A DNA stretch of 64,000 bases from an uncultured Planctomycetota bacterium (GCA_963823665.1 CAWGMQ010000010.1:1312001-1376000), one strand, 5' to 3'; counted from the first letter of the stretch, positions 11,648-30,555 are shown. The notes: generated from the letters alone by a model not told the origin. Translations and numbers: made by a program.

Positions 11648-12196
11648 TCAGTCGCGCGTGAGCGTGACCGTATACGCCAACACGGTCAATTGCCCTGTGG
11701 AAATGCTGACCGTTCCATAAGCCTGCAAGCTCCCCGATGCCTTCGCGAAACGGCCGGAGCCGCCTGCGACGGTTCCGCTCCAGGAGAACGCGTAGCCCGG
11801 CCCGCTCTCGTAAATCGCCCCGGTGAATTGAATATCGAGCTTGGCGCCGCTCGAGTCGACAAGAGTCCCGGTTCCGTTCACCAGGTCGTATCCGACGATC
11901 GCCCCATTCTCGAGCGCAGCCCTGTATCGGGACTTGCCGTTGAAAGTGCCCGTTCCGAGAGGTGCCTCCGGACCCGCCGCCAAGAACTTGTCTGTTCCCT
12001 GGCCAGGTTTCCCCGCCTGGACCATTTGACCTTCGAGCGATCCGTAGACCTGATGGATCCCGGTCGCTTTTGCGACCCGCTTGAGCTCCGCCGCCGGCCG
12101 ATCGGCAACTGCAATGGCGCTCATCAGGTCGCGTGATTCAAGGGTCTCGACCCGCAAAGCTTGATGGCGACACGGCTTCCGCTTGTGGAGCGACAT
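11648..12196 (-). CDS. Small planctomycete extracellular protein
   Basis: LRVETLESRDLMS motif followed by a beta-rich domain (WSGTVAGGSGRFAKASG); GGAGG RBS before ATG 12196. Confidence 0.75.
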   Translation of the reverse strand: MSLHKRKPCRHQALRVETLESRDLMSAIAVADRPAAELKRVAKATGIHQVYGSLEGQMVQAGKPGQGTDKFLAAGPEAPLGTGTFNGKSRYRAALENGAIVGYDLVNGTGTLVDSSGAKLDIQFTGAIYESGPGYAFSWSGTVAGGSGRFAKASGSLQAYGTVSISTGQLTVLAYTVTLTRD

Positions 12197-13514
12197 CGAT
12201 CGACCCTCCAGATTGGTCGTTCCGCGGTCGGGGCAACGGGACCGCCGCAAAAGATACGCACTCTTGTGCCGATGCTACCTCGTCTTGCGACGATACCATT
12301 TGCAGCACTTGAACTTGCGTCGAATCGTCCGCTCCGTTTTCCCGGGTTAAGGGAGCAATTCGGGTAGCACCCTCGGTTCCGGTCGCCGCTAGGGCTTCTG
12401 CTTCCGGCCGCGGCTTGGGAGCCAGGTCCGGAAGTGCCTGCACAGCACCGTCGATATCGAACCTGGACGCTTTGGCGTAGATACCGATGGTCAGCTTCGG
12501 GTCAGAGTGCCGGGCAAGCACCTGGCAAGTCTTTACCGACGCTCCGGACGCGACGATATACGAGATGTAGCAACCCCGCAAGCTGTGAAAATCAACCACC
12601 CCGGAATCGGTCTCGTAGGGAATGCTGGCAGCTTCCAGGTCGATCCGCAGCATTTCGGCCGTCCGATTCGTCAACGTCCCGAAGATCGCCTCTCCTGGTG
12701 CCTTCTGGGCCAGCCACGGGCGAACTTGATCGGCCAGAGCTTGCGCCAACGGCTGCACAGCTTCCTGTCCGTTCTTCGTGTAAGCAGCCCGGCAGCGAAC
12801 GGTAGGAGGCGACGCGACAAGTTTGAAGTCCTCGGGTGTCAGGGATCGCAGTTCATCGGCTCTGAACCCGGTTCCGAGTGCCAAGCTGTACAGCACGGCG
12901 CGCTCAGGGCCTTCGATACCTCGGAAGATTGGCCCGCGCTCCGCTGCCCGCACCACCCGTGCGGCTTCCTCTGGAGTCATAGCCCGGCGAACCCGCCGCC
13001 GGTCGCCCTCCGAACTCGTGGTGGCGAGGTGTGCAAGGTGGTGATCTCGAGCCCGTCCATCCTTCCAGAGCCATCGGCTGAACGCCTTGACCGAGCGGAT
13101 GTAGTGATTGATGGTTTCGGTACTTAGCCCTTCACTACGAAGTACCACGGTCGCGTCAAGGGCCTTCGAGAGCGACAAGTCAGATATCCGCCGGCTCTTG
13201 GTCAGCTCGAGCATCCGGCTGACTTGCGTCGTCGTCGTGAGCGCGTGTCCGCTGTTGCTGCCTTTGGCTGCCAGGTATCGCCCATAATCCGCGGCGTGCT
13301 CCGCCAGGGGCTTGGCCTCGTGCTTCTGGTAGGCAAGATCCCGCGGGTCGATCTGTCCGTTCTTGATCTTGCGGGCTTCCGTCTCGAGCTTGACCGCCAG
13401 CTCTTGTGACGCTCGCTTGTCGGTGTAGCCCTTTTTCTTCCGCCGGTCGCCGTTGGCGTCGAAGTAAAGAATCGTGTAGCAGTCTGCGCCCTTGGCCTTG
13501 AAAACCGATGCCAT
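12138..13514 (-). CDS. int: Tyrosine recombinase/integrase (458 aa as integrated; last 37 aa host-derived)
   Basis: GTGFRADEL (R), TKN (K), DFHSLR (HxxR), LARHSDPKLTIGIY (H, Y); N-terminal arm-binding-like MASVFK...YTILYFDANGDRRKKKG. Confidence 0.95.
   Translation of the reverse strand: MASVFKAKGADCYTILYFDANGDRRKKKGYTDKRASQELAVKLETEARKIKNGQIDPRDLAYQKHEAKPLAEHAADYGRYLAAKGSNSGHALTTTTQVSRMLELTKSRRISDLSLSKALDATVVLRSEGLSTETINHYIRSVKAFSRWLWKDGRARDHHLAHLATTSSEGDRRRVRRAMTPEEAARVVRAAERGPIFRGIEGPERAVLYSLALGTGFRADELRSLTPEDFKLVASPPTVRCRAAYTKNGQEAVQPLAQALADQVRPWLAQKAPGEAIFGTLTNRTAEMLRIDLEAASIPYETDSGVVDFHSLRGCYISYIVASGASVKTCQVLARHSDPKLTIGIYAKASRFDIDGAVQALPDLAPKPRPEAEALAATGTEGATRIAPLTRENGADDSTQVQVLQMVSSQDEVASAQECVSFAAVPLPRPRNDQSGGSIDVAPQAEAVSPSSFAGRDP
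12253..12270 (+). repeat. Left attachment site
   Basis: GATACGCActcttGTGCC, 15/18 identical to 28139-28156; lies inside the 3' end of int. Confidence 0.75.
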
Positions 13515-13515
13515 G

Positions 13516-13719
13516 TCACTTCGCCTTTCTCGTGGTTGTGATCCGCAGGCCCAGTAATTCGGCCAGCTTGTCAAGATTCGCCAGCGATAGCCCAGCTTGC
13601 CCGTTGACGAATCGAGACATCGACGCCCCGTCAATGCGCGTCCGCCGGCAGATTTCGTAGTGCGTCAAACCTGATTGCTTGACCGCTTCCCGGATTTGGT
13701 CAGTCAACGTATCGCTCAT
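13516..13719 (-). CDS. Cro/XRE-like HTH regulator
   Basis: LTDQIREAVKQSGLTHYEICRRTRIDGASMSRFVNGQAGLSLANLDKLAELLGL; stop lies 1 bp before the int start. Confidence 0.85.
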   Translation of the reverse strand: MSDTLTDQIREAVKQSGLTHYEICRRTRIDGASMSRFVNGQAGLSLANLDKLAELLGLRITTTRKAK

Positions 13720-13826
13720 CTCAGCACCATCCACATCGCGCCAGCCACTCCCACCAGTAGCGACAACAGCGTCAGGTCAACCCCCACGTCGATGATTGCC
13801 AGGGTTGCACACTTCAGAATTCGCAT
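13716..13826 (-). CDS. 36-aa single-TM peptide
   Basis: MRILKCATLAIIDVGVDLTLLSLLVGVAGAMWMVLR; GAGAGGGGG RBS; ATGA overlap with the HTH gene. Confidence 0.55.
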   Translation of the reverse strand: MRILKCATLAIIDVGVDLTLLSLLVGVAGAMWMVLR

Positions 13827-13868
13827 TTCCGCCCCCTCTCGTTTCGTTATTCTCACTGCCATGATGGA

Positions 13869-13897
13869 AGTCTATGCTTTGCTTGTTTGAAAATCAA
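13869..13897 (-). promoter_or_regulatory. Candidate sigma70 promoter for the peptide-cro-int operon
   Basis: TTGATT-17 bp-TAGACT on the minus strand. Confidence 0.45.
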
Positions 13898-14298
13898 CGG
13901 TGCAGCGATGGAATTCCGCCCGATTTTTCGGACTCCTTCCAGATCGGTTAGAATGTGCACGTGATTATACTATCATACATAGTGAGCGTACACGTGTACT
14001 CCCCCGTAAACGGGCATTTCTTGCCACTAAGTGCACACCATTTCGCCACCCCCTTAGAGCGCAAGGGGGTCGCGCAATTGGCTTGGCATCCGCCCTCCAA
14101 TCGGCGAAACTGACCACCATGAAAGCGCTCAAAGGGTCGGCGGTTTTGCTGCCATCGTCGGCAGTATGATCTTCTACGCGTGGCTGCGCCGCGGCATCCG
14201 TGGCTCTGGCTTGGGATTTTCGCCCCGGCGCCGCAGGTAAAGCGCCCGCCTCAACCAGCTCGAGCGCGGGCACCTCGACCCTTGCTTTTCTAAGGCAC

Positions 14299-14790
14299 TC
14301 AATCGGCCGATGGATCGAACATCGATGCCGGCTTGCCCAGAGCCTTAGCAATCTTGGAAATCGTAGCGTGCGATGGGCTGTGCTTTCCGGTTTCAAGTCG
14401 GCTGATGTGGCTTTGAAGCAACCCCGCCTTCTGTGCAAGCTGCGCCTGCGTTAGACCGGCGGCTTGACGCTCCTTGGCGATCCGCTTGCTGATGAATGAA
14501 ATCCACGCCAAGAGCCCCGACTTCGGCGAATTCGGCTCCGATGGGCAGTCCATCTTTCGCGAACCTGATGGCGCCTGTTCCAGGATTTCGCGCATCGTCA
14601 CGACGCAGCTTTCAAATTCCTCAGGATCTGCGGTCGGCAGTACCTTGACCAACTCGAAAAGATCGTCCCTGTCATTCTGGTTGAGACGCTGCACGCGATC
14701 CAACACGATCGCGACGGCCATCGTCAAAGCCTCATGGCTAAGATTGGACTGCGCAGAATCTAGTGGTCCGTGAAGCTCCTTGGTAGGCAT
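14299..14790 (-). CDS. HigA-like XRE antitoxin
   Basis: C-terminal RQAAGLTQAQLAQKAGLLQSHISRLETGKHSP HTH; downstream of a RelE-like gene. Confidence 0.8.
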   Translation of the reverse strand: MPTKELHGPLDSAQSNLSHEALTMAVAIVLDRVQRLNQNDRDDLFELVKVLPTADPEEFESCVVTMREILEQAPSGSRKMDCPSEPNSPKSGLLAWISFISKRIAKERQAAGLTQAQLAQKAGLLQSHISRLETGKHSPSHATISKIAKALGKPASMFDPSAD

Positions 14791-14845
14791 GCTATCCCTT
14801 CCGAATTCAATATAATCGAATAATCTTGCGTGGGGCTCGCGCGGG

Positions 14846-15259
14846 TCACGCCGCCGAATAGCCGCCATTTCGATAGTTTCTGGCCCTCCTTCGCATCCGA
14901 ATCTTCGCACCGTTCGGAGTCGGTCCGTCATTCTGTTTCTTGATCCCGCCCAACACGACGATGATGGTTCTGTGCTTGTCGAGCAGAAAGAATATGCGGA
15001 CGTTCATCCCTCCCAAGATACCGCCCTTGTCACGTAGCTCGAAGTAGTCTTCGATTGCACGGATGTCGGCGGTAACGCTATGTGAAGGATCATTTTCCGT
15101 AGCCAACTCCTTGAATTGGAGTGCCAAGTGGTGATATTGGGCTCGGTTCACGAATCCCATTACTTCGTGGTACCCCTCGTTGAGAATCCGGACGCTCCAC
15201 CGATAGCCAGGCGGCGGTCCGCCCCCCTGCGTCACGCCAACCTTGACCTCTTTCGCCAT
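14846..15259 (-). CDS. RelE/HigB (Gp49-like) toxin
   Basis: DYFELRDKGG..NVRIFF....IIVVLGGIKKQNDGPTP pattern; toxin-first gene order. Confidence 0.8.
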   Translation of the reverse strand: MAKEVKVGVTQGGGPPPGYRWSVRILNEGYHEVMGFVNRAQYHHLALQFKELATENDPSHSVTADIRAIEDYFELRDKGGILGGMNVRIFFLLDKHRTIIVVLGGIKKQNDGPTPNGAKIRMRRRARNYRNGGYSAA

Positions 15260-15292
15260 ATTAATCGTCCTTTATCCCCAGGCGCCTTGAGG

Positions 15293-15362
15293 ATTATACA
15301 ACAATCATAGTGCGCTTCAACAGTGTTCGCTACATATTATACAACGCAACGGTGCTACTCAA
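15293..15362 (-). promoter_or_regulatory. Duplicated -10 elements upstream of the TA operon
   Basis: GTTGTATAAT twice on the minus strand (15293-15302, 15336-15345), each preceded by TTGA(AG/GT). Confidence 0.55.
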
Positions 15363-15557
15363 GATTCTCGCCTGTTCGTTGTGCGCCCTTGAATTCGAGC
15401 CCGATGGCGAGCCGCCTACCCCTTCTCGTGCCCCGTCACGTAAACCCCGGTCCGCGCGAGCTTCGATATCGGCGCGCTCTCGGTCGCCCGTCCAATCCCT
15501 CGACCGAAGCGCCGCGGGCTTCACAGCGAGGCGTCTAGGCGATGGAATCCACGTCAT
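15330..15557 (-). CDS. Hypothetical protein
   Basis: ATGA-coupled to the upstream gene; no recognisable motif. Confidence 0.3.
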   Translation of the reverse strand: MTWIPSPRRLAVKPAALRSRDWTGDRERADIEARADRGLRDGAREGVGGSPSGSNSRAHNEQARILSSTVALYNM

Positions 15558-15757
15558 CGTCGCTTGCTCTTGGCTGCGTGCCGGAATGGTAACGGTTTCG
15601 CCGTTCCACAATCTGGGCAGACTGCCCGCGGCCCGTTGTCGCTGGCCCGGATCACAGTCACCGCCCCGCACTGGCACGGCGACCCGGAATCGCGCCGCGG
15701 GTCCACCGTCCCTGTCGCCCTCTGGCCGCTCCGGCGTTTCCCCAGGATGATCTTCAC
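15554..15757 (-). CDS. Small Zn-ribbon protein
   Basis: CQCG...CPDCG; GTGA overlap with the upstream stop. Confidence 0.55.
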   Translation of the reverse strand: MKIILGKRRSGQRATGTVDPRRDSGSPCQCGAVTVIRASDNGPRAVCPDCGTAKPLPFRHAAKSKRR

Positions 15758-16032
15758 CGCCGGCGCTCCCATCCCCGAATCCAAAAGCAAACTGCCAGGT
15801 TTATGAGGCACACCGCCGCGCTTCCGATGAAAAACGTCCACGCGATCGGTCCCTGTCCGTTGCGCTGTTGCAGCCAGAGCCCCGCCAGTGCCATTGCCAT
15901 TGAAGCCGTTGACGTCATTTCAAGCACCAATCCAATCCGGTCGCTCCGGCCCGCGGTTTCGGGCAGCGCTTCGACCAGTTCGTCCACTTTCGCCTGGCTG
16001 TTGCTCTCTGAACTGGTTTCGATAATCCGCAT
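15754..16032 (-). CDS. Two-TM membrane protein (possibly holin-like)
   Basis: GAGGAGG RBS; two hydrophobic segments and a basic C-terminus (RGWERRR). Confidence 0.6.
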   Translation of the reverse strand: MRIIETSSESNSQAKVDELVEALPETAGRSDRIGLVLEMTSTASMAMALAGLWLQQRNGQGPIAWTFFIGSAAVCLINLAVCFWIRGWERRR

Positions 16033-16064
16033 GGAAAGCACCTCCTCGTGGTTGTGAACAAACC

Positions 16065-16364
16065 TCAGTCTGGAATCATCCCAGGATATGGCGGGCATGC
16101 CACCGGCTCCGTGGGGGCATCGCACTCCCCGCCCCCGCACCGTTGGCATTTCTTCACCACCGGCGTAGGCAGTCCGAGCGCCGCGGCCGCTTCCTGCACC
16201 TCGGCATCCGTGGTCGTGATTTCGCCCTTCGCTCCGTGCCACTGCTTGACGAACAATGCCGCGTAAGCAGCCTGGCTCCAATGGTCGCCCAGCTCGTGGA
16301 CGAGTCGCTGAAAGTGCGGCTGATGCGCGACTGCCTTTTCGATTTCAGGTAGCGTGATCGTCAT
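16065..16364 (-). CDS. Hypothetical element protein
   Basis: 99-aa ORF, ATGA-coupled to the upstream gene. Confidence 0.6.
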   Translation of the reverse strand: MTITLPEIEKAVAHQPHFQRLVHELGDHWSQAAYAALFVKQWHGAKGEITTTDAEVQEAAAALGLPTPVVKKCQRCGGGECDAPTEPVACPPYPGMIPD

Positions 16365-16762
16365 GATTCAACCCTCTCAAACCTGCCGATTGGGCAACGC
16401 TCGGTTGAGGCCCATAACTTCAGAGACCCGCAGCCACAAATTCGACATCGTTGCGAATCGGCGTTGTAATGCTCGCATGCCTGGCATAACGCTAAACGTT
16501 GCTCATGGATTTCTGGCGAGACTTTGACTGCATGGCCAGTCAGAACAGCACCCGCCACTCGAGCGGCTGCGCCCAGAGCGTTTACGGCCATCTGCGCCAT
16601 GGTCGGAAACTCCTGCGGTGCACCCGTGGCGATCTCGAGAACGATTTCCCGATAGCGACCGCGCTGCCATTCGTCCGGATTCTCATCCGAGCAAAGCCAG
16701 CGATAACGCTCGTGTTTTGTTTTTCCGACCACGATGTCTAGGGCTTCGGGTAGTGTCATCAT
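16361..16762 (-). CDS. Cys-rich Zn-binding phage-type protein
   Basis: RLALCQACEHY...RCRICGC..KL...ERCPIGRF; ATGA-coupled on both sides. Confidence 0.7.
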   Translation of the reverse strand: MMTLPEALDIVVGKTKHERYRWLCSDENPDEWQRGRYREIVLEIATGAPQEFPTMAQMAVNALGAAARVAGAVLTGHAVKVSPEIHEQRLALCQACEHYNADSQRCRICGCGSLKLWASTERCPIGRFERVES

Positions 16763-17583
16763 TGGGTCACCGTGACGCCAATAGTCGGTCCCGTGCAATT
16801 CCCATACACCGTGCAGAAACCACCGTCTCCAGCACCATTGGCGCAGCCGCTGCCAATCAAAAAACTTCCGGTTTCGTTTACTGGGTAGCAGGAGCTTTGT
16901 TCCGGCCCCACCCCGGTCATATTGGTGGATATCTCGCTGCTGAAACTCGAGCCGCTCGTATCGGGGCACCCGTTCGAATCGGTTGGGTAATTGTGCGGAC
17001 AATACACGGACGCTCTATCAATGCTGGCGCTTATGCAGGGATTGTAGCTGTACTGTAATTCCACCGTTCCGCCCACGCATCCGCATGCCGCGCCATAGGT
17101 GTAATTGATGCTGCCGATGTAATTCAACGAGCTTCCCGTACCAACGATACTTAATGTTCCGTAGGGGTAAAGTGTGACTGCTCCGACAACGGCGTCGGTA
17201 AGTGTGAGTTGATCGGGGTACATTAACAGAAGGGCTTTGTTTGGTGACGCTGTGCTCCCTGTTACGGTAATGTGCTGTGTCGTCGGAGTCGTGAGATAGC
17301 CAGACGGCGCCGACATCGAAAAGTAATATGTGCCCGTGCTTGACACTTCCCAAACAAACTGGCCGCTCGAGTTAGTCGTCCCTGACGCAACGACGGTACC
17401 GCCTGAATTGTTTTGCTGGACAGTTATCGTGATCCCTGAGAATCCGCATATCTTTGTGCTGTCACACCACCATACCTGAACGGTGTGATTCGCACCGCAC
17501 CCACAACACGTCCCAATCGACCAGGCGCCGTAGGCGGCATAGAGTAGGCAGACGAGACCAATGATCAACAGGTAGACCATCAT
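16759..17583 (-). CDS. Cys/Thr/Gly-rich beta protein with N-terminal hydrophobic anchor (putative virion or surface protein)
   Basis: MMVYLLIIGLVCLLYAAYGAWSIGTCCGCG, then prealbumin-like VVASGTTNSSGQF...GTYY; A/T-richer codons. Confidence 0.7.
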   Translation of the reverse strand: MMVYLLIIGLVCLLYAAYGAWSIGTCCGCGANHTVQVWWCDSTKICGFSGITITVQQNNSGGTVVASGTTNSSGQFVWEVSSTGTYYFSMSAPSGYLTTPTTQHITVTGSTASPNKALLLMYPDQLTLTDAVVGAVTLYPYGTLSIVGTGSSLNYIGSINYTYGAACGCVGGTVELQYSYNPCISASIDRASVYCPHNYPTDSNGCPDTSGSSFSSEISTNMTGVGPEQSSCYPVNETGSFLIGSGCANGAGDGGFCTVYGNCTGPTIGVTVTQ

Positions 17584-17801
17584 CGCCCCTGCTGCTCCTG
17601 CTGGCCAGTCTGGTAGATGCCAGCGCCCTTCACCTGATCGGTCGGCACCACGAGAACGTTGCCGGCCTTCAGTTCCACGAGACAGAGAATCGGGTGATCG
17701 GGTCCGCGGTCAAGAATTCCGAGCCAGAGCCCCGGCCCCTTGTCGGTGACCTCGACTGACCGCGGCGTGTTGAAGATGCCGTGTTGCGTGATCACTTCCA
17801 T
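17580..17801 (-). CDS. Small beta-rich hypothetical protein
   Basis: 73-aa ORF with GAGGT RBS, coupled to the next gene. Confidence 0.6.
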   Translation of the reverse strand: MEVITQHGIFNTPRSVEVTDKGPGLWLGILDRGPDHPILCLVELKAGNVLVVPTDQVKGAGIYQTGQQEQQGR

Positions 17802-17827
17802 ACCTCAAATCCGGCCCGCCGTTCATT

Positions 17828-18088
17828 TCATTCCGATTCAAGCATATCCCTGACGTCTCCGATCAACGCGAGCGCTTCGGCGAGCACCGACTCTGCTTCC
17901 GTCGGACCCTCGTTCAGCCTCCGGCGGAGACGGTCGTTCTCAGCCTTCAGTGTCTCGTTTTCCGAAATGAGCTGGTTAATTGCAACCAGCGCCTTGCCCG
18001 GCTGCGTCGCGATTGCCCGAAACATCTCCTTGATCTCTCGCTCGCGCGACTTGCTCACGATGTCGGTCATCTTGGCGGGGATCACCAA
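17828..18088 (-). CDS. Coiled-coil hypothetical protein
   Basis: LISENETLKAENDRLRRRL heptads; GGAGG RBS. Confidence 0.6.
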   Translation of the reverse strand: MVIPAKMTDIVSKSREREIKEMFRAIATQPGKALVAINQLISENETLKAENDRLRRRLNEGPTEAESVLAEALALIGDVRDMLESE

Positions 18089-18564
18089 TGTCCTCCTTCT
18101 CGCTCCCGCTGCCGCGCTGCGGCATCTTCTGCATAAGCCGCTTTCCGCTCGCGGTGTTCGACTGCTGAGTCCACCTTGTTCTGCGTGATCAAATAGCCAT
18201 AGATCGCTTCGAGCCTGGCTGTATCTCGTCTGAGCTCCGCAACGGACATGTTGAGCATCCCGGCAATCTTCCTGTCGAGCGCGTCAGTCCCCGCGATTTC
18301 GCCCGCTGCAAGCGCTCGTGCGATTGCTTGATCCGAGCCGGGGGTAACAATGCCCGCCCGGTCTCGCATGCGATCAAAGCGAGCTTTCGTTGCAGCCCTC
18401 TGGAGATTTACTTCGTATGTCGCGATTGCCTGTTTTTTCACCGGCTCAAGCGAGGTCAGAAGCGAGGCGACTTCGGCCATTGCTTCCGTTCGTTTCTGCT
18501 CAGCCACTTCCCGCGCGATGGTCATCATCTGCGCCGGAGTGAGTGCCGCCGTTCGATAGCTCAT
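18082..18564 (-). CDS. Helical hypothetical protein
   Basis: 160-aa Ala/Glu/Arg-rich ORF; GGAGGGGG RBS; ATGA overlap. Confidence 0.65.
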   Translation of the reverse strand: MSYRTAALTPAQMMTIAREVAEQKRTEAMAEVASLLTSLEPVKKQAIATYEVNLQRAATKARFDRMRDRAGIVTPGSDQAIARALAAGEIAGTDALDRKIAGMLNMSVAELRRDTARLEAIYGYLITQNKVDSAVEHRERKAAYAEDAAARQREREGGHW

Positions 18565-18743
18565 TTCCCCCTCCGTTGTGACTGGCGTAGAAAGGCCCCC
18601 AATGGCCCGATGGATTCCACGGTGCTATCGCTGGCCTCTTGACGCTCTTGCTCGAGCCGATGACGCTTCTCAGCTTCGCGCCGAGCCCAGCGCCTGTTTT
18701 CCTTCGGCCGCGTGTCAATTGCCCGGCAGAATTTGTTGTCCAT
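18561..18743 (-). CDS. Small hypothetical protein
   Basis: 60-aa ORF with GAGGT RBS, directly after the capsid gene. Confidence 0.5.
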   Translation of the reverse strand: MDNKFCRAIDTRPKENRRWARREAEKRHRLEQERQEASDSTVESIGPLGAFLRQSQRRGK

Positions 18744-18752
18744 TGGATCACC

Positions 18753-19976: not shown

Positions 19977-19978
19977 CG

Positions 19979-20413: not shown

Positions 20414-20578
20414 GTAGCACCCCTTTCGATGGTCGAATACTAGAGCGAGCCGCGATATCGAATCAAGTGAAGGCGCGAGCAATTCCACTTAATGCTTATG
20501 GAATTTTTGGACACACGCGAGCCGTTTTCGCCGTGTTTTTCGTGGCTCGGATGTGTGATTCGTCCAGAAAATCGCCCC

Positions 20579-20827
20579 CTAAACTGGCGGATTATTGGAC
20601 GTTCCATCTCGTTCAGCGAGCAATTCGGCGAGCCGCCGGAAACGTTCGTCGGTCTTGAACGTCCCCGCGTTCAGCCAGTTATAGAGCGTCGATCGGCTGA
20701 TTCCCGCAGTGTCGGCAGCTTCGTTGATGCTCAAGCCGCGGCCGAATGCGAAACCGAGAAGCAACATCGTCTCGCCGTCGCAAGCCGATGGTCTGCCGCG
20801 TCTGTTTTTCGTTTTCGCTTGTGGCAT
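20579..20827 (-). CDS. Small HTH DNA-binding protein
   Basis: RGRPS...GLSINEAADTAGISRSTLYNWL. Confidence 0.75.
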   Translation of the reverse strand: MPQAKTKNRRGRPSACDGETMLLLGFAFGRGLSINEAADTAGISRSTLYNWLNAGTFKTDERFRRLAELLAERDGTSNNPPV

Positions 20828-20839
20828 GGCGTCGCGCCC

Positions 20840-21181
20840 TTACATGATCTTCGTGAACATCGGATGGTCGTCATCGGCTTGCATGAACATCCGCCATCTA
20901 TACTCTGCTTCTATGGCCCTTATGAGCTTTCCCATAGCGTCGGGATCATCGATGGGTATACGTTCGGCTCGACTGTCACACTTGGCCCAGCACACGTCGC
21001 AGCACTCGCAGAAGCAAATGATTTGACCTTCTATCACTTTGCTCGAGCACTTCGCGACCGATCCGCAGACTGCGCAATAATCCTTTGCTGGTTTGACCGG
21101 CCGTGCCGGCGCGGGTTCGGGTTCGGGCGCACGCGGTTTAGGCGCCCCTTTGAGTCTGTGCCGCCATGTCAGGTTATTCAT
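20840..21181 (-). CDS. Zn-finger hypothetical protein
   Basis: CAVC...CFCECCDVC. Confidence 0.6.
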   Translation of the reverse strand: MNNLTWRHRLKGAPKPRAPEPEPAPARPVKPAKDYCAVCGSVAKCSSKVIEGQIICFCECCDVCWAKCDSRAERIPIDDPDAMGKLIRAIEAEYRWRMFMQADDDHPMFTKIM

Positions 21182-21184
21182 GGT

Positions 21185-22027
21185 TCAATCCTCATCCCAG
21201 AGTGAAGGGTCACGAAGGTTGCCCACCGCGGCGGGGTTGTGCCGGACGGCATAAGGGGGAATGAAACGCGGGTCTAGTTCGTCGTCGTCGTCGTTTTCTT
21301 GCTCGAGCTCGCGCTTACGCTCCGCCACCTTCTCGACCTCGAGCGCTCTGGCTTCCCAGGGTTGCAGATTCGTTGTGTCGGCCGTGATTGTCATGGCCAT
21401 CCATCGTTGACGTCCAAGCCAGAGCGCGAGGCTCACACTCATAACGCAGTCGTCATGATCCGAATTGAACGCTTCGGCAGAAGTGTTGCCGGTTTTGGCG
21501 CTCACCCGGATTTTAAAATCCCTCAATTCTTTTTTGAGCAATCTAGCGTGCTCCTGATGCTTTCCGTTCCGCATCGGGCATATCTTTACCCGACGATTGC
21601 CGAGTGCTTCGGCCAATGCGCTCACGAGCTCAACCTTGGCGACGTTCCACATGCGCCGGCCGCGTGGCGCCGATGTTGCGCCCCCGGTTATGTTGATCCC
21701 GTAGACTCGGATGTGCTCGTATGGCGCGAATGCGGTAACGCACTGCTCAAACACCGCCGTTCCACAGCCGGACATATCGATCACCACAATGGGAGCCGGT
21801 CGAATGTCGCTTCTGGTTGCGATGCGTACCAGGTCTTTTACCACGGCGCCGTACTCTGTTTTTAACGGCCAGCGACGTAGGCCCACGATCTGAAACGAAT
21901 AGATGGAATTCCCCCGGCTATCGCGTTCGGGAAGGCCCTGCGCGTCCACGGCCAGGCTGCGAGCCATTACAGACAACGCGGAAAAGTCCCGGAACTGGCC
22001 TAAGTCCAGCGTGACAAAGTTGTCCAC
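21185..22027 (-). CDS. terL: Terminase large subunit, stand-alone RNase H-like nuclease domain
   Basis: TLDLGQFRDFSAL, VIDMSGCG and DHDDCVMSVSLA acidic motifs; GAGGGG 8 nt before the GTG. Confidence 0.8.
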   Translation of the reverse strand: MDNFVTLDLGQFRDFSALSVMARSLAVDAQGLPERDSRGNSIYSFQIVGLRRWPLKTEYGAVVKDLVRIATRSDIRPAPIVVIDMSGCGTAVFEQCVTAFAPYEHIRVYGINITGGATSAPRGRRMWNVAKVELVSALAEALGNRRVKICPMRNGKHQEHARLLKKELRDFKIRVSAKTGNTSAEAFNSDHDDCVMSVSLALWLGRQRWMAMTITADTTNLQPWEARALEVEKVAERKRELEQENDDDDELDPRFIPPYAVRHNPAAVGNLRDPSLWDED

Positions 22028-22029
22028 GA

Positions 22030-22797
22030 TTAGAGCCCCTCGAGTGCTGTGAGTAATGGCATGCCAGGCGGATACTCGGTTAAAGCCTCAATCGCATCAT
22101 CACCTATTAATTGGTCGCCGTCCTCTATAAAAGCGTTTTCATGTTCCTGTCTGTACAGTGCAGGCCCCAGGATCTTGAGCTCATCGTCCAGGAATCCCGG
22201 CTTTACACGATGCGGATAGTCGACGCGTCGGGCGGAGATGCGTTCCCAGGTCTGCTCCTGATCTTCCCAGCATGCGTAGAAGAACCCCCGCCGGCCCGCG
22301 GGTGTGGAGAGCAGGATTAGGTCGCCGTCTGTCTCCGCCAGCATCGGACGCACCGCAGCCAGCATGCCCTCATCTATACGTGATGCTTCGTCTAATATAA
22401 CCAAGTGTGGAGTGTACCCGCGTGCAGTAGCCGGATCGCCTGGCAAGGCAACCAGCTTGCTACCGTTGGCGAAGTGCAGTTCAGTTCTGAGTTGCTTGAC
22501 CAGCTCAACGGGCTTGGTGCGCTCGTAATACTGAACAGTGCGGTCAAACAGCAACAGCGATTGCCTTTCCCCGATGCTAGTCAGGAGACATTCCGAGCCC
22601 GCGGTGAAGCAAACACGGTGCAAGGCTTTCACCGCAGATACGCTGGTTTTCCCAAGTTGCCGGCCGCAAAGCATAAGCAATCGTTTGCTTGTCGACTGCA
22701 AAGCTTGGCGCTGCCATAAATCTGGTTCAAGCCCCGTCGCCGCGCGAAACAAGTATGTCGGGTCCAGTGCCGCCTTCAACAATGCTTTCCTGTCCAT
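22030..22797 (-). CDS. terL: Terminase large subunit, stand-alone ATPase domain
   Basis: DLWQ (Q motif), GRQLGKT (Walker A), VILDEA (Walker B), LSTP (motif III), YRQEHENAF. Confidence 0.9.
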   Translation of the reverse strand: MDRKALLKAALDPTYLFRAATGLEPDLWQRQALQSTSKRLLMLCGRQLGKTSVSAVKALHRVCFTAGSECLLTSIGERQSLLLFDRTVQYYERTKPVELVKQLRTELHFANGSKLVALPGDPATARGYTPHLVILDEASRIDEGMLAAVRPMLAETDGDLILLSTPAGRRGFFYACWEDQEQTWERISARRVDYPHRVKPGFLDDELKILGPALYRQEHENAFIEDGDQLIGDDAIEALTEYPPGMPLLTALEGL

Positions 22798-23389
22798 CGG
22801 TGCTACCCTCCGAGTGCTCGAGTTGCTCCATCTGGTCGATAACCGCGGCGAGGCGATAACGGTCTTCTGGTGTCTTCACAGCGTCAAGGAGGGCCGCGCC
22901 TTGCAACCCGAACATCGCGACGCTGATGTTCTGGGTAGACCCGCCGATCTTGTTGATGGTCTTGTGCTCTCGCAGTTTGCCCCAGTAGCGATCCATCAAC
23001 AGTTGGATGGCCTTCAGCCGGTCGCCGTGCGTCTCGCCCTCGAGAGCGATATGGGCGAGCTCTTTGACCGCGTCGGCGAGCAGGGTTGGGTGCTCGTCAT
23101 CGATCAGTTGCTTGAACCGGCGTTTGATCCTGACACCTGCTGCGATCCGCGCCGGATCGGGGGTCGCGCAGCTATTGCCCACAGCGAACATGCCGTTCTC
23201 ACCCCGGCCTTCACCCGTGCCGGCCCAGCTCGAGGCGTCCAGAGCGGTCTGCGGGTCCTGCTGTTCGGAGAACACCCGCGGCGCAGGGCGGGCGGGCTTG
23301 GCTGGCTTGGCGCCCTTGACCTTGCGCGGGCCCCGGTACCCTCGAGCGGTACCATGCCAGCGAGGCAACGGCGAGGTGTCAGTGCTCAT
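22727..23389 (-). CDS. Putative terminase small subunit-like protein
   Basis: Immediately upstream of terL; RGENGMFAVGN motif and helical DRLKAIQLLMDRYWGK segment. Confidence 0.5.
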   Translation of the reverse strand: MSTDTSPLPRWHGTARGYRGPRKVKGAKPAKPARPAPRVFSEQQDPQTALDASSWAGTGEGRGENGMFAVGNSCATPDPARIAAGVRIKRRFKQLIDDEHPTLLADAVKELAHIALEGETHGDRLKAIQLLMDRYWGKLREHKTINKIGGSTQNISVAMFGLQGAALLDAVKTPEDRYRLAAVIDQMEQLEHSEGSTDGQESIVEGGTGPDILVSRGDGA

Positions 23390-23404
23390 GGTGGTTGTCC
23401 CCGG

Positions 23405-23761
23405 TTAGTTCCTGGCGCACAGCATGGCCGTTCCTTGTGCTATCCGACGCGCTTCCTCGACCTTCTCCCGAATCTGGTCGATGCGTTGTTCCTGCGCAGC
23501 GAGCGCTTGCTCCCGCGCGACAACGCGACGTTCGTTCTCAGTCTGGGCCCGTATCAGCTCAGTCGAGCCGCACGCGATGGCGCGAACCTCGAGCCCCAGG
23601 GCCCGTACATCGGCCGCCACTCTTTGCACATCCGCAGCCAGTTCGGCTGTCTCGTGCTCAACGTCGGCCAAAGCACACTCAGCCGCGTAGAGTGCCTCAG
23701 ACGCCCTGCGCTGGTCATCTCTCAGGTCGATCAACACGTCTGCCCAGTTCACTGCCGTCAT
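23405..23761 (-). CDS. Coiled-coil hypothetical protein
   Basis: Ala/Glu/Arg heptad-rich; GAGAGGG RBS. Confidence 0.55.
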   Translation of the reverse strand: MTAVNWADVLIDLRDDQRRASEALYAAECALADVEHETAELAADVQRVAADVRALGLEVRAIACGSTELIRAQTENERRVVAREQALAAQEQRIDQIREKVEEARRIAQGTAMLCARN

Positions 23762-23928
23762 GGTGCCCTCTCTCGTTGGGTAAGGGGTCATTTATGGGAA
23801 ACCGGTCCAAGTGCTACTTGGGATGCTGCCGTATAACCGGAATCGTCACAAGTGTCACTGCGTGAATTACTTGCGTCTGTCGGCATCGGATTCTCTCTCC
23901 GATGTTGATTGGTTATCTGTACGATCGA

Positions 23929-24201
23929 TCAGTCATGCCGCTCGCGGATCGCGCTGGCCAGGTCGTGAATCGCGCTGGCGATGGTTGTCGCCGCTTCCTT
24001 GATGGCCTCGCCATGAGCTTCCATTGCGTTCGGGCGAGTCCTCGGATCGGAGCGGAATGAAACACCGAACCAGACAGCCCGTGCCAGGTCATCAAGCGTG
24101 TCGACGATGTTTGCGGCCTCGCCGTTGGCGTCGCTCACATTCGGCGAGGTAAGCGCCGCGGCGAGGGTGTCTGCCAGTCTGTCACTCTTGGATGCGTTCA
24201 T
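23929..24201 (-). CDS. Hypothetical protein
   Basis: 90-aa ORF with AAGGAG RBS. Confidence 0.6.
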   Translation of the reverse strand: MNASKSDRLADTLAAALTSPNVSDANGEAANIVDTLDDLARAVWFGVSFRSDPRTRPNAMEAHGEAIKEAATTIASAIHDLASAIRERHD

Positions 24202-24639
24202 GCGTTAAACTCCTTGCATGCATGACGGTATGGGCCGACGATGGTGAGCCCGGCTGAACGGCCAGAGACTGGCCTTCCACGCTGATCTGCTCAAAAGCCT
24301 GCTGCTCATGGTCAGGCCACGGGATACCATCTGCCTCGAGGCGATTGGCGAGTTCACCCCATCGTTGCCGGCGCTCAATCGGCCATCCAGCGAGATCAGA
24401 AGGTCTCGACCACTTCAAGCCTACAAAACCTACGGAACCGGTTTTGTCTGGTTTCGTAGGTAGCGGGGGGTATCTATCTATAAGAATTTCACTGGCGCAG
24501 AAATACACTCACTCACACCATCATTGATGTACTCTTTAGGGTCTGAATTTTCTGTGTACCTATGGGGTGGATTGCCTACGAAACCTACAAAAGCATCCAC
24601 TGGCTTGATCTGCTGCTTGAATGCATTCAAGTATTTCAT
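24182..24639 (-). CDS. Small replication-associated protein overlapping the origin (probably frameshifted)
   Basis: MKYLNAFKQ...FVGFVG (ATGA-coupled to the DUF3987 gene), then in another frame PTKPDK...WPIERRQRWGELANRLEADGIPWPDHEQQAF. Confidence 0.45.
24420..24592. repeat. Iteron-like 9-bp repeats, candidate replication origin
   Basis: CCTACAAAA 24420, CCTACGGAA 24429, inverted TTTCGTAGG 24452, CCTACGAAA 24575, CCTACAAAA 24584, flanking an A/T-rich core. Confidence 0.7.
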
Positions 24640-26588
24640 GCTTGCGACCACACTTCCTTGGATGGCAGAACCGGATTGATCCACACTTTCTTGGATGGTC
24701 TGCCACCGAACGCGCTCTCTGACGGAACCTCGACCACCTTCACCCATCCGCGGTCTTCAAGGATGCCGATGGCGGTTTCGACGTCATCGACCATCCGCAG
24801 GCCTGACCATCCCTTCTGCGCGACCTCCCGCGGAGTGAACGGATTTGGAAGCGATCCCTTGATCCGCTCGGATAGCGCGACCGCGATCGAGATGTCGCCG
24901 TCCGCGCAGGCCATGTACACCCGCCTGGCGTGCGCCTCGAGCAGGTCACACCATGCCGCGGCCGCTTGAGCTGCCTCGAGGGACACCGGTCCTATCTCCC
25001 ATGCCCTGCATGTCTCGACCAAATGGAAGATCAGTGCCAGCGAGGCCATGAGCGAGCCATATTTCGATAGGTGGTTCTTCATCAGGTCTGAGAGAGCACC
25101 ACCCCGGAGTCGCTGTTGCAGTTCTGTATACCACTGGTTGAAGAACGCTTGAGCGTCATCGGCGAAATTGACGTAGGCCAAGCCGCTATCCTGATCGACC
25201 TTGCATCCCTTATCCGCTGCGTTCATCTGGTCGATCGCCTTGAAGACGTCATAGGCTTCATTCTTCGCCGCGGTATCTGGCCACTGGTCGACATGCACGT
25301 AATCGTCCGGCGGATCCGGATACACCATCACCTGGAAGCGGGGAACGAAACCGTCCGCTTCCTCTCCACTGACGGTGCGTTTCATGTACTGCGCGAGCGG
25401 TCCGGGCTGGATGGTTCCGAGCACCGCCAGACACGCCGCTTCAATGTGCGTCGTGCCGCGCTGGATTCGATCGAATGTGAAAGAGCCGTTTCCATTCCAG
25501 CACTCAAGCAGGAAACCCCGGTCCGATTGGTGACCTTCCCGCTCGAGGCTCTTGAGCAGTCCAAGCAGTTCGTCCCGAAAGACCGTCAACCCGTTCGGAT
25601 TCTCCGCCATGAGCTCGCCAAGCTTCTCGACCGTGAAATCGTTCACGAGATACCGCCGGCACTTCGGCTGATCTTCCTGACTGGTGGCCATCGCATCGAC
25701 CGCGAGCCGCTTTAGTTCGTCCTCCGTCGTCCCCTCCACCTTCGCCGCTTTCTTCAGCGTGCTCTTGGCTGCGTCCTTGCGTGCCGCGGCAACAAGCTGG
25801 CGAGCGGTGTAATCGTTCATCTGTTGGGCGAAGGCGTCCATCGCATCGGCCACGAGTCGCTTGAGCGGACGCATGACGGCCTCGACTGCCGGGGTCTTCA
25901 AGAATCCGGGTGGCCCGACGATGATTCCCCAGAGATTCACCACCACCACCCAGTCATCGTAGCGCTTCGGTCTTATCGCCACCTTCCGGCCGATCACCCC
26001 GCTGAGAGCGACAATCAGCGTCGCCGCAACGTACTCAAACGGAAAACAGCCACGCGTTGCGATATCGCGCAGCCACCCGCGGAAAACCTCTGGCACCATC
26101 TCCGGCACGATGGCAGGGACCGGCTCGAGGTTTGCCGTTATCGGGCGGGGTGGCAGAAGGAAGATAGGGCTTCGAGCCGAAACCTCTTTATCCCTCCATT
26201 TGGTCCGCTTGGCCGCTTCATTCACGAAGTCGTCGCCGTCCACATACTCGCCATCGGCGACCTTCTCGTTAAACCACGCTTTGAGTTGATCGCCGTTGCC
26301 AGCGATTCCGAACGCTTCGCGCAGGTTCAAAGTCCCCACCTGGCTGGCGAAGTAATGGTTGCCGTTCCCTTCGCACCACACCGCCGCCGCGGTCGCCGAT
26401 TCTGGTTCGCTATAGGCAAAGATGATCCGCCGCCGGTCCGCGAACTTCGCAAGCTGGCCCTTCGCCGTGAAGACCTCGATCGCCGGAATGCCGAGCTCCC
26501 GCACCGCGGCTGCAACCCGCAGTTCAATGCACCCGAAAACAATGTCGCCGGGCTTGCCATTCGGGACATGGCCGTTTGATTCGCTCAT
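24636..26588 (-). CDS. DUF3987/YfjI-family P-loop replication protein
   Basis: NLWGIIVGPPGFLKTP, DFTVEKL, FRDELLG, FDRIQRG, GTIQPG, DGFVPRF; C-terminal wHTH with GGRPS. Confidence 0.85.
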   Translation of the reverse strand: MSESNGHVPNGKPGDIVFGCIELRVAAAVRELGIPAIEVFTAKGQLAKFADRRRIIFAYSEPESATAAAVWCEGNGNHYFASQVGTLNLREAFGIAGNGDQLKAWFNEKVADGEYVDGDDFVNEAAKRTKWRDKEVSARSPIFLLPPRPITANLEPVPAIVPEMVPEVFRGWLRDIATRGCFPFEYVAATLIVALSGVIGRKVAIRPKRYDDWVVVVNLWGIIVGPPGFLKTPAVEAVMRPLKRLVADAMDAFAQQMNDYTARQLVAAARKDAAKSTLKKAAKVEGTTEDELKRLAVDAMATSQEDQPKCRRYLVNDFTVEKLGELMAENPNGLTVFRDELLGLLKSLEREGHQSDRGFLLECWNGNGSFTFDRIQRGTTHIEAACLAVLGTIQPGPLAQYMKRTVSGEEADGFVPRFQVMVYPDPPDDYVHVDQWPDTAAKNEAYDVFKAIDQMNAADKGCKVDQDSGLAYVNFADDAQAFFNQWYTELQQRLRGGALSDLMKNHLSKYGSLMASLALIFHLVETCRAWEIGPVSLEAAQAAAAWCDLLEAHARRVYMACADGDISIAVALSERIKGSLPNPFTPREVAQKGWSGLRMVDDVETAIGILEDRGWVKVVEVPSESAFGGRPSKKVWINPVLPSKEVWSQA

Positions 26589-26791
26589 GGGCCCGCCCTC
26601 CGTGGTTGCCGATGGTCGATTACCTCAGTTGGGTTTCCGCAGACCGGACATTCCCAAATCTGCACCTGTCCGCGCACCCCCCGGAGTCGAAGCCGCTCCC
26701 AACATCCGCAGTAGCTTTGTGGCTCCTCGAGTGCACCGTCATCGTCGGTAGGAAATGCCAGGTCACGCTGGCCGCGCAGGGGCTCGCTCAT
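26585..26791 (-). CDS. Small Zn-ribbon protein
   Basis: YCGC...WECPVCG; ATGA overlaps on both sides. Confidence 0.55.
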   Translation of the reverse strand: MSEPLRGQRDLAFPTDDDGALEEPQSYCGCWERLRLRGVRGQVQIWECPVCGNPTEVIDHRQPRRAGP

Positions 26792-27083
26792 GATGGCTCG
26801 CCCCTTTCCTGTTCGGCCCACTCGCGAACAATGCGCGGTGACCATAGGCGCGCCGGCCGACACTTCTATCCGGCCGCGGAAACTCGCCGGTCGATATCCG
26901 CTCCTCAATCAGCCGCCTGGATAGCGGGATGACGGCGAGAATCTGATCCCAACCCCAGAGAAGCATTTCCGAAGGGGGGATTGATCGAACTTTGGGCAAT
27001 TTGCTAGGATCGGGTTCCTGGATAACCTGATCGTTCGCGAGGCCCGGAGTCGCCAGCTCCGGGTCCTTGCTTGCGCACTGCAC
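26788..27083 (-). CDS. AlpA-like regulator/excisionase (1-bp frameshift ~26850)
   Basis: WDQILAVIPLSRRLIEERISTGEFPRPDRSVGR, continuing in another frame as RLWSPRIVREWAE to TGA 26788. Confidence 0.65.
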
Positions 27084-27086
27084 CGA

Positions 27087-27293
27087 TCAGGCCCCCTTGC
27101 TCATGGGAGCCATGGCGCGGGCGATATCGCCCGCGGAATAGCGTGGTGGCACACCCGGCTGCAAATCGATGGCGACGGCGCCGATCGCAGCGAGGCGATA
27201 GAGCTTTGTAGGGCTTAGTCCCGGATGGCGCCGAGTTGCTTCGGCTGCCGAAATGAAATCGGCTTGGGCGGGTTCAAGTGTCGCTGTCGACAT
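27087..27293 (-). CDS. Xis-like winged-helix protein
   Basis: FISAAEATRRHPGLSPTKLYRLAAIGAV...PRYSAGDI. Confidence 0.6.
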   Translation of the reverse strand: MSTATLEPAQADFISAAEATRRHPGLSPTKLYRLAAIGAVAIDLQPGVPPRYSAGDIARAMAPMSKGA

Positions 27294-27422
27294 TGCGGTT
27301 TCCCGGAAGGATGCATAGGCGCGATTCACCAGAGCACCTGGTTGAAACCAGTGCTCACGAGTGAGTCGACTTCCTATGCGGTCCGTCTCCGGCCGCAGTC
27401 AGACTCTGACATTCAGTCTTCG

Positions 27423-27451
27423 ATCATAGAATGACTACTAAGCCATTTCAA
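27423..27451 (-). promoter_or_regulatory. Candidate sigma70 promoter for the xis-rep operon
   Basis: TTGAAA-17 bp-TATGAT on the minus strand. Confidence 0.55.
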
Positions 27452-27453
27452 GA

Positions 27454-27861
27454 TCACATCGGTTGTTTCGGCCAGTACGGCAATTTATCTCGCAAATGCC
27501 ATATCGCGTGGCGGATTTCAAACTGTGGATTATCTGGTCGGCATGAATGGCATGTCGCGTCCGCTCTTTCCATCAGCCAATTGAAGGCGCCCTCGAAGTC
27601 CTCATCGGAGAATTGCCGAGCCGTCCGCCCACTCGTCTGGTTCAAGGTCGGATTGCGCTTGTACCTCATCAACCAAATCGAAATTGTGCGGTACGCTTTC
27701 GCAAAACGCGGTTCATGCTTCTGGAAGTCCTCGTCGCTGGAAGATTGAAGCAGGCCCATCAAGACCCACCAGCTCAATCCCCAGGGTCGCCGCTTCACTC
27801 TACCGAGCAATCGTGACGCTTCGTCTTGAATCAGTGCCTGCACCCGCTTCCGATCGATCAT
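27454..27861 (-). CDS. Hypothetical protein (possible regulator)
   Basis: 135-aa ORF starting 6 bp after the stop of the stranded integrase tail. Confidence 0.6.
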   Translation of the reverse strand: MIDRKRVQALIQDEASRLLGRVKRRPWGLSWWVLMGLLQSSSDEDFQKHEPRFAKAYRTISIWLMRYKRNPTLNQTSGRTARQFSDEDFEGAFNWLMERADATCHSCRPDNPQFEIRHAIWHLRDKLPYWPKQPM

Positions 27862-27867
27862 CTCAGC

Positions 27868-28140
27868 TCACTCCGTTTTGGCCGCGTTCACCACCGCCAG
27901 AATCGCCCGACGCTGCTCCGCAGACAGCCGTCCCCAGGATTCCCGCACCAGCTCGAAGTCCGAATCGTCAGGGAGCATTTTGGGAGCACTTGAGCCACGC
28001 TCCGACGCGTTTCCATGCGTGTCTGTGCGTGATAATACCGCACTGCCAGGCTCGGAAACAACGGAGAATGAAGGCTTCCCGCGTGTCCCCGCGTTTCCGT
28101 GCGCGTCAGTGCGTTCTGACGTGAAAACGTCAAGATCTGA
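27868..28140 (-). other. Stranded 3' fragment of the integrase gene (89 aa)
   Basis: Stop-free frame in phase with int at the att core: (ECVS)DLDVFTSERTDAHG...PDDSDFELVRESWGRLSAEQRRAILAVVNAAKTE*. Confidence 0.7.
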
Positions 28141-28156
28141 TACGCATTCCAGTGCC
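28139..28156 (+). repeat. Right attachment site
   Basis: GATACGCAttccaGTGCC, matching 12253-12270. Confidence 0.75.
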
Positions 28157-28159
28157 AGT

Positions 28160-30363: not shown

Positions 30364-30555
30364 CGCGTCCCTATCCATGTTGTGTTCATCTGTACGGCGA
30401 CCTCCAAGCGAAGTAGTATAACATCCCGCCGCTATTTCGCGACACCGCCCCTCGAACTTCCTTGAGCAACCCTCTACAATAGACTCTGTTCCTCCATCCA
30501 CGCGCTTTCCGATTCATCTCGGAGCGCTTGAACGTCGGATTCCGAGCTCTGAGCT

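Follow-up and report, generated by a model that had tools for sequence, protein, structure and literature searches.

In Myxococcus phage Mx8, the attachment site attP lies inside the integrase gene int, and integration creates a new int 3' end with altered properties, a change that, according to a 2018 review, did not inactivate Int (PMC6070905). In archaeal elements of the SSV type, with integrases of family PF16795, the recombination site is located within the integrase gene, and integration partitions this gene; a 2021 review calls this type exclusively archaeal and states that only archaea have integrases that carry their own target (PMC8371274). In mycobacteriophage BPs, attP lies in the repressor gene, and integration shortens the C-terminus of the product and removes an ssrA-like degradation tag (PMC4557955). 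Here, we analyze a stretch of 64,000 nucleotides (hereinafter, the window) from an uncultured Planctomycetota bacterium (GCA_963823665.1 CAWGMQ010000010.1:1312001-1376000; G000:C10:1312001-1376000 in our numbering), part of a 16.5-Mb genome. The window contains an integrated, phage-like element of ~15.9 kb. A previous sequence-only reading of this DNA had proposed that attP of the element lies inside its int gene, so that integration swaps an 89-aa C-terminal tail of Int. We consider it very probable that attP is indeed located in the 3' part of int and that integration exchanges the C-terminus of Int, and that this exchange is a trait of the integrase family; a function for the two-helix hairpin at the end of the detached tail is less certain.

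The parallel with Mx8 concerns architecture. In both cases, attP is found in the int coding sequence after the catalytic region, a new 3' end arises on integration (intP in the phage and intX in the prophage of Mx8), the crossover falls within int on the 3' side of the catalytic tyrosine, and a phage-coded C-terminus is exchanged for a host-coded one. A small regulator or excisionase gene is located directly upstream of int (uoi in Mx8, a helix-turn-helix (HTH) gene here), and, in our reading of the Mx8 Int sequence, a stretch resembling translated tRNA lies ahead of the last ~110 residues. However, Mx8 Int has 22% identity to the window Int over the N-terminal 266 residues only (BLASTP, pairwise E 3e-4), it has another C-terminus without the hairpin motif, and its attB is in the 3' end of a tRNA gene, whereas the window element is intergenic and it is the relatives of this element that are found at tRNA genes. 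Close kinship with Mx8 Int is not supported: the similarity is generic and N-terminal, and no Mx8 hit was found at E<=1e-5 in the phage collection; a tblastn search of an unsplit family member against 50,697 phage records returned Geobacillus phage GBK1 as the sole hit. The architecture matches that of Mx8 intP/intX, but the integrase family appears to be a different one.

The SSV-type "suicidal" elements (SSV1/2, pTN3, pT26-2) also have their integrase gene partitioned by integration; however, in those elements, the N-terminal part is cut from the catalytic part, leaving two inactive pieces, whereas here the catalytic domain, which belongs to PF00589 and not to PF16795, remains whole and a C-terminal module is detached. 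The sequence-only reading had named SSV1/pNOB8-type elements and Mx8 as precedents; those of the SSV type and Mx8 are valid, whereas pNOB8 is not, because the review lists pNOB8-type integrases as classical, unsplit enzymes (PMC8371274). Integration-dependent immunity of BPs is similar in that attP lies in a gene and integration shortens the C-terminus of the product, switching its behaviour. It differs in that the gene encodes a repressor with an ssrA-like tag, whereas here attP is inside int itself, att does not cut into the HTH gene (13516-13734), and Int loses a folded hairpin. Lambda-type heterobivalent integrases of tRNA-targeting islands share the fold, the targeting of tRNA 3' ends (by the relatives) and candidate arm-type repeats; the difference is that their att lies beside int and that the protein ends shortly after the catalytic tyrosine region.

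The empty site and the ends of the element

The ends of the element can be placed by comparison with a genome of the same genus (G001) that has the empty site: the left flank (window 10521-12269) adjoins the right flank (28139-28181, then pyrG from 28732), with the left flank and pyrG ~200 bp apart. Positions 3-1301 of the G001 locus (L014) match window 30027-28732 (pyrG) at 84% identity, positions 1457-1499 match 28181-28139 at 86%, and positions 1483-3242 match 12269-10521 at 78%; the overlap between the latter two blocks is confined to the core region. There is a single copy of the core in G001 (...CAAAC-GATACGCA-TTCCTTTGC...), and in the three-way alignment its left side resembles the host side of attL and its right side (TTCC...GAGTCAGCAAGG) the host side of attR, the switch occurring at GATACGCA. 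Because homology with the empty site breaks at the core, the ends named by the sequence-only reading are the true recombination junctions.

Both 18-nt sites were found where they had been reported, GATACGCACTCTTGTGCC at 12253-12270 and GATACGCATTCCAGTGCC at 28139-28156. The site pattern derived from them has two matches in the whole window, both of them the att sites; since this pattern was taken from the same data, the shuffle control is no independent test. It should be noted that a repeat search of the window revealed no long direct repeat bounding the element, and the 8-bp repeat alone would be weak evidence. The G+C content is 0.56-0.60 within the element versus 0.62-0.67 outside, and the Pfam products encoded between the sites include a capsid protein, the N-terminal part of a terminase, a DUF3987 protein, three HTH proteins, a Gp49-like protein and the integrase. 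The attB of the element is intergenic, between the pyrG region and a gene for an extracellular protein, and no tRNA gene was detected in the window by ARAGORN. In more distant genomes of the family (G008, G015 and G021), pyrG and the gene at window 10788-11645 are neighbours as well, and pyrG is syntenic in these three genomes and in G001.

The integrase reading frame across the core

On the minus strand, the tail at the right end of the element precedes int at the left end (Table 1). In the prophage form of Int, residues 1-421 are encoded by the element and the last 37 by the host (12251-12141), followed by a stop codon at 12140-12138, in agreement with the earlier count of host residues. Translation of the minus strand at both att sites gives E-C-V-S in the same phase (...SAQECVSFAAV... 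at the left and ...LALECVSDLDVF... at the right), as had been observed. The tail frame (28137-27871) comprises 89 stop-free codons, and its TGA (27870-27868) is separated by 6 bp from the ATG of the next element gene at 27861. When the ends are joined computationally at the core, the 421 codons and the tail form one open reading of 510 aa that ends in a stop, exactly as predicted from the sequence. The crossover core corresponds to codons 419-421 of Int, on the 3' side of the catalytic tyrosine, and integration exchanges 89 element-coded residues for 37 host-coded ones.

By its catalytic domain (PF00589, E 3.9e-11), the window Int is a tyrosine recombinase of the phage integrase family. The claim that the catalytic residues are kept holds: R, K, HxxR, H and Y all precede residue 421, and R218, K247, R312, H335 and Y345 (numbering of the unsplit homologue P0069) are invariant across 71 sequences including the window Int. 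The catalytic domain and the helix that follows the tyrosine are intact in prophage Int.

The last 36 codons of the tail encode the hairpin; their G+C content in codon positions 1, 2 and 3 (0.72/0.44/0.78) is coding-like, and a search of the genome with the hairpin profile recovered the window hairpin at E 9.8e-13. In the part of the tail upstream of the hairpin, 24-bp repeats are clustered at a distance of 25-140 bp from the core, on the tail side only, and encode an RTD(A/T)HGNA peptide repeat. At <=7 mismatches, four of the six hits in the window fall within this cluster in the tail linker and none in the int-side arm. These repeats are candidate arm-type protein-binding sites. Peptides similar to RTD(A/T)HGNA recur after att in three related loci (L038, L039 and L041).

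Table 1. Positions of the element, its attachment sites, the parts of int and adjacent genes in the window.
Feature	Position	Strand	Remarks
Prophage-like element, ~15.9 kb	12253..28146	-	absent from G001; lower G+C inside; Pfam hits
attL	12253..12270	.	8-bp core GATACGCA (12253-12260), then element-side CTCTT-GTGCC; G001 left-flank homology reaches and crosses the site
attR	28139..28156	.	8-bp core GATACGCA (28139-28146), then host-side TTCCA-GTGCC; G001 86% match over 28139-28181, TTCC after the core as in attR
int, prophage form, 458 aa + stop	12138..13514	-	ATG at 13514; PF00589 at aa 179-349
Detached 3' end of int, 89 codons + TGA (27870-27868)	27868..28137	-	in phase with int across the core
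Conserved C-terminal hairpin module, last 36 aa (MLPDDSDFELVRESWGRLSAEQRRAILAVVNAAKTE)	27871..27978	-	alignments A1/A3; divergent form of the family motif
24-bp repeat cluster GCGTTTCCRTGCGYGTCWGTGCGT	28007..28114	.	exact copies at 28007 and 28091; imperfect copies at 28081 (+) and 28038 (-)
Cro/C1-type HTH gene, 72 aa	13516..13734	-	Pfam HTH_31/HTH_26/HTH_3; ends 1 nt before int ATG
First element gene after the tail, 135 aa, no family	27454..27861	-	ATG 6 bp past the tail stop
Host gene, planctomycete extracellular N-terminal motif	11648..12196	-	PF07595, weak; kept beside attB in G001
Host pyrG (CTP synthase), right flank marker	28738..30501	-	syntenic in relatives

Unsplit relatives carry the hairpin contiguously

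Homologues of the window Int numbered 731 at E<=1e-10 among 8000 candidates scored, and the best 120 (352-650 aa) were examined. Seven of these 120 (P0043, P0045, P0051, P0054, P0069, P0073 and P0096; 513-554 aa) carry a contiguous hairpin: in each, the catalytic domain, a tRNA-like translated stretch and then the hairpin form one protein, with an end motif (...DLAxVIDAWPxLPEAIRAGIVAMVKA...) that aligns with the window tail. The same order is found in a contig of 8171 bp (L059) that has a 55-bp terminal direct repeat; its int is unsplit and includes both the tRNA-like stretch and the hairpin. A terminal direct repeat on a contig is the usual sign of a circle. This contig was binned under an actinobacterial label and is probably mis-binned.

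In two further loci from well-assembled genomes, L138 (G084:C2) and L139 (G101:C1), at ~18485-18621, only ~20 residues, which contain no att, separate the hairpin from the catalytic domain; the hairpin of L139 was identified by eye. Since these loci carry the hairpin near the catalytic domain, it is integral to the family, including members that never detach it, and their type may be the ancestral, never-split form. The hairpin variant of these two loci (W-P-R/G-L-S/A-x-E-x-R) resembles that of the window. Because unsplit homologues (the seven proteins, L059 and L138/L139) carry the hairpin contiguously, the distal tail is the real C-terminus of this integrase family.

Split relatives are mostly in phase across att

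With the window tail as query, a six-frame search detected relatives adjacent to att sites in two genomes, G008 and G012. In L038, a tRNA-Cys gene has a perfect 52-bp self-repeat 15.7 kb downstream, just after an HTH-int pair, and in L041, a tRNA-Ser gene has a 60-bp repeat (58/60) 11.3 kb downstream; in both, Int read across the repeat to the other end of the element is open up to the hairpin. A further locus, L039 (G012:C82:25000-44999), was not counted, as its Int (left) and tail (right) are on opposite strands in a frameshift-rich assembly. It contains two copies of a 54-bp tRNA-Met repeat (10519-10572 and 16814-16867) and was read as back-to-back or tandem elements or as remnants.

Two samples of loci were examined for the shared phase. 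The tail-first sample was obtained by a pattern scan with one genome per species: 236 candidate stretches yielded 111 confirmed ones, and 80 loci were kept. A closer alignment subset (A2) replaced one that was too diverse (A1), so these loci are biased to the LPEA[IL]RAGI form. In only one of the 80 loci (L059) does the tail follow Int without a break; in 12, Int lies downstream on the same strand, and in 67, there is no Int within reach. Among the eight loci with a whole Int, six are in phase and open across perfect 44-78-bp tRNA-derived repeats, the other two being L085 and L092. The Int-first sample, which avoids selection by the tail, comprised 40 places in long contigs. Nine of them were testable, and in seven of the nine, the joined frame is open as far as the hairpin, the exceptions being L145 and L162. 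A second family member in the genome of the window itself, L125 (G000:C8:355800-375799), is bounded by a perfect 52-bp tRNA-Met repeat (4087-4138 = 18206-18257). An extra tail (671-760) and a 94% copy of the repeat (2140-2187) in L125 suggest a tandem remnant. Two other loci of this genome have tails, one with at most an Int fragment (L126) and one with no Int (L127).

Pooled over L038 and L041, the two samples and L125 (which is not in phase), 15 of 20 integrated elements other than that of the window are clearly in phase (binomial p 1.7e-4 against a chance of 1/3, with the reservation that kin are not independent; the att targets differ). The in-phase composites are open for ~130-190 codons across perfect 44-94-bp repeats. 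The five out-of-phase cases may result from decay or assembly indels, or may be real exceptions. The test proposed in the sequence-only reading, a profile of the last ~35 aa, thus places the hairpin at the distal end of related elements, in frame with int across att in these 15 of 20. The HTH-int pair is kept in relatives as well, with HTH identities of 78% in L038, 47% in L041 and 52% in L125.

A piece of tRNA is translated within at least 63 of the 120 best homologues, in sense orientation in 19 and in antisense orientation in 44; this count is a lower bound, as it was obtained by tblastn of the C-terminal parts against 41 tRNA genes from the loci. In 14 of the 31 other Int-first loci, an intact antisense tRNA lies 160-330 nt past the catalytic domain and the Int open reading frame (ORF) runs into it, which suggests that these elements are longer than the stretch inspected. 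The relatives integrate at tRNA 3' ends and the tRNA gene is regenerated. In most family members, att is the 3' portion of a tRNA gene, through which int is read in frame whichever way the tRNA is oriented. The window element is an atypical member, with no tRNA segment, an 8-bp core, an intergenic attB and a divergent hairpin.

The hairpin and the predicted structure of Int

The hairpin, i.e., the last ~35 residues of the tail, has two helices and the consensus DLAxVxxAWxxLPEAIRAGIxAMVxAA, followed by 2-25 variable residues. Few other parts of the protein are as strongly conserved across the phylum, and W, L, R, I and A of the hairpin are invariant in alignment A3. In the AlphaFold2 model of unsplit P0069, the core up to residue ~335 is predicted with pLDDT >90, the flexible tyrosine segment (336-351) with pLDDT <50, the linker (370-477) with pLDDT ~33 and the two-helix hairpin (483-510) with pLDDT 90-96. 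The linker is thus a predicted disordered spacer. The hairpin folds confidently by itself (pLDDT 90), and for this reason its confidence in the full model says nothing on docking. The core of the model is similar to archaeal XerA and to HP1, lambda, Brujita and Tn1549 integrases (Z 14-17). The match to lambda Int covers residues 1-344 (Z 14.6), and alignment from residue 1 suggests an arm-binding domain in the modelled structure. With respect to the heterobivalent type, the model aligns to lambda Int from the first residue and the 24-bp repeats of the window are on one arm only.

No family was found for the tail in Pfam or NCBIfam, and a search of Protein Atlas returned only clusters of hypothetical proteins of 34-38 aa. 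With the hairpin profile, 9042 representative proteins were detected at E<=0.001; the best 150 are all 35-286 aa long, and the motif begins 2 to 128 residues from their predicted N-termini. This variable distance fits orphaned Int ends that were called as small genes. The 80 tail loci are mostly from Planctomycetota (Isosphaeraceae, Gemmataceae, Pirellulales, Phycisphaerae and the isolates Paludisphaera soli and Aeoliella sp.), with six bins otherwise labelled, and viral contigs contain two tails with no Int nearby. In the family of the host, 52 of 60 genomes have a family-level Int match (E<=1e-40), in 128 places, from which the Int-first sample was taken. The attP-in-int swap is a trait of a large integrase family in Planctomycetota. 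Our literature searches returned no description of this integrase family or of attP inside int in planctomycetes.

Neighbouring genes

The host-coded end of int (12138-12196) overlaps the first ~19 codons of the host gene at 11648..12196 in another frame, and the element sits directly upstream of the start of this gene, where its promoter would be expected. A terminase-like gene of the element consists of two minus-strand ORFs, one at 22030-22797 (N-terminal ATPase part, 255 aa) and one at 21185-22027 (280 aa, no family). The gene may have been broken by a frameshift or may be truly bipartite, and the element itself is possibly a satellite or defective. Outside the element, 28182-28731 (550 bp) is a separate difference that is missing from G001. 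A 171-aa ORF at 28130-28645 (-) has no Pfam hit; the stretch, especially 28363-28486, resembles the end of a Ser/Thr kinase domain, and ~110 bp of the ORF match dozens of places in G000, G001, G008, G009 and G021 at 70-80% identity.

Mechanism and alternative explanations

In the explanation that we favour, int of the circular form encodes 510 aa comprising a predicted N-terminal arm-type domain, the core-binding and catalytic domains, a long low-complexity linker that includes the core, and the C-terminal hairpin. Recombination at the 8-bp core with the intergenic attB relocates the final 89 codons to the opposite end of the prophage, and the remaining prophage Int has 458 aa ending in 37 host-coded residues. 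The disordered linker would tolerate whatever att sequence it must encode. The hairpin would be removed on integration and restored on excision, with altered Int activity, assembly or stability as the outcome. We take the hairpin to be a functional module of Int on the grounds that even members that never split it conserve it; in that case, its removal and restoration should change Int. That the loss of the hairpin would act in this way, as a gene-level switch like that of Mx8 intP/intX, has, in our estimate, just short of an even chance. The directionality or stability switch suggested by the sequence-only reading is likewise an inference.

A number of observations weigh against the view of an in-gene attP with a functional hairpin as a family trait. 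No circle junction or excision was seen; two contigs from soil metagenomes in Logan span attR as it is in the prophage, but their shorter sides extend for only 28 and 26 letters, and they are uninformative on excision. The first 53 codons of the tail have no coding-like G+C pattern, and this part also holds the DNA repeats, so the N-terminal part of the tail is perhaps constrained as DNA and not as protein. Unlike in the relatives, the window core is only 8 bp and attB is not in a tRNA gene, and the window hairpin is a divergent copy of the motif. As for the phase, the linker of L085 contains stops, the only repeat of L092 is 16 bp long and probably the wrong one, the hairpin of L125 is one base out of phase with Int, L145 is off by one base just before the motif, and L162, which has two repeat copies with a 1-nt difference between them, is open with just one of the two. 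Finally, 28 of the 40 Int-first loci had no repeat of >=18 bp within ~17 kb and three had a repeat but no tail motif; hence, the trait is not established for all members.

The architecture could also be real but neutral, with attP placed in a dispensable, disordered 3' extension of int, the truncated Int working equally well and other factors, such as the HTH protein, setting directionality. We take this possibility seriously while finding it somewhat doubtful. The intact catalytic domain and post-tyrosine helix of the prophage form fit it, as do the predicted disorder of the linker, the tight coupling of the HTH gene to int in all relatives examined and the published account of Mx8, where the change did not inactivate Int (PMC6070905). 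However, a dispensable extension would not be expected to end in a hairpin that is highly conserved across the phylum, with five invariant residues, and that is kept where it is never detached (L138/L139); this points to a function that integration removes. A different concern is that the copy in the window is stranded or sits at a secondary site, i.e., that an element of a tRNA-targeting family entered an intergenic site through 8 bp of identity and may excise inefficiently. The relatives use 44-187-bp tRNA-derived repeats, whereas the window copy has 8 bp and no tRNA, its terminase-like gene looks split and its hairpin is divergent. Nevertheless, no stop interrupts Int, the HTH gene or the tail. 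According to the mv4 preprint, heterobivalent tyrosine integrases need 7-8 bp of identical overlap, so the 8-bp core would be mechanistically sufficient. Moreover, the closest Int homologues (P0003-P0007) are also without recognisable tRNA-derived ends, which suggests a subclade with non-tRNA sites. We regard a stranded copy as rather unlikely.

Had the tail been an independent small gene, e.g., one started from the Met at 27978, its phase with int would be a coincidence. Gene callers do list thousands of proteins of 35-286 aa that end in the motif, and a Met precedes the last 36 residues in the window. Against this stand the unsplit proteins and the circular contig, the 15 of 20 elements that are in phase with long open composites, and the similarity of tails that extends upstream of the Met; furthermore, because the distance from the N-terminus to the motif varies between 2 and 128 residues, there is no conserved start for a small gene. 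An independent gene is thus very improbable, and neither of the two findings that the sequence-only reading had named as fatal, a junction elsewhere in empty-site relatives or a distal tail that is out of frame or independent, was obtained. The exchange of the Int C-terminus at an in-gene attP remains our preferred reading.

Implications

A broader proposal, which we regard as speculative and rather unlikely, is that this is a phylum-wide class of elements in which att, usually a tRNA 3' fragment in either orientation, is a translated disordered linker, and the hairpin is detached by integration and re-attached by excision. This would be a built-in, DNA-level switch of activity or directionality beside, or instead of, a separate directionality factor. 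The intP/intX arrangement of Mx8 would then turn from a curiosity into a widespread design, and the finding bears on the claim of the 2021 review that integrases with their own target are exclusive to archaea (PMC8371274).

For the annotation of planctomycete genomes, thousands of "hypothetical proteins" of 35-150 aa would be detached integrase ends, prophage int gene models would end in host- or tRNA-derived peptides, and the 3' end of int together with the paired hairpin would mark both ends of an element to the base. The family would also offer a natural test of the control that C-terminal modules exert on tyrosine recombinases and of the ways in which a protein can accommodate an in-frame tRNA sequence of either orientation. 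If true, this architecture shows how att may change, from one tRNA to another and to an intergenic 8-mer, as in the window, without disrupting the enzyme.

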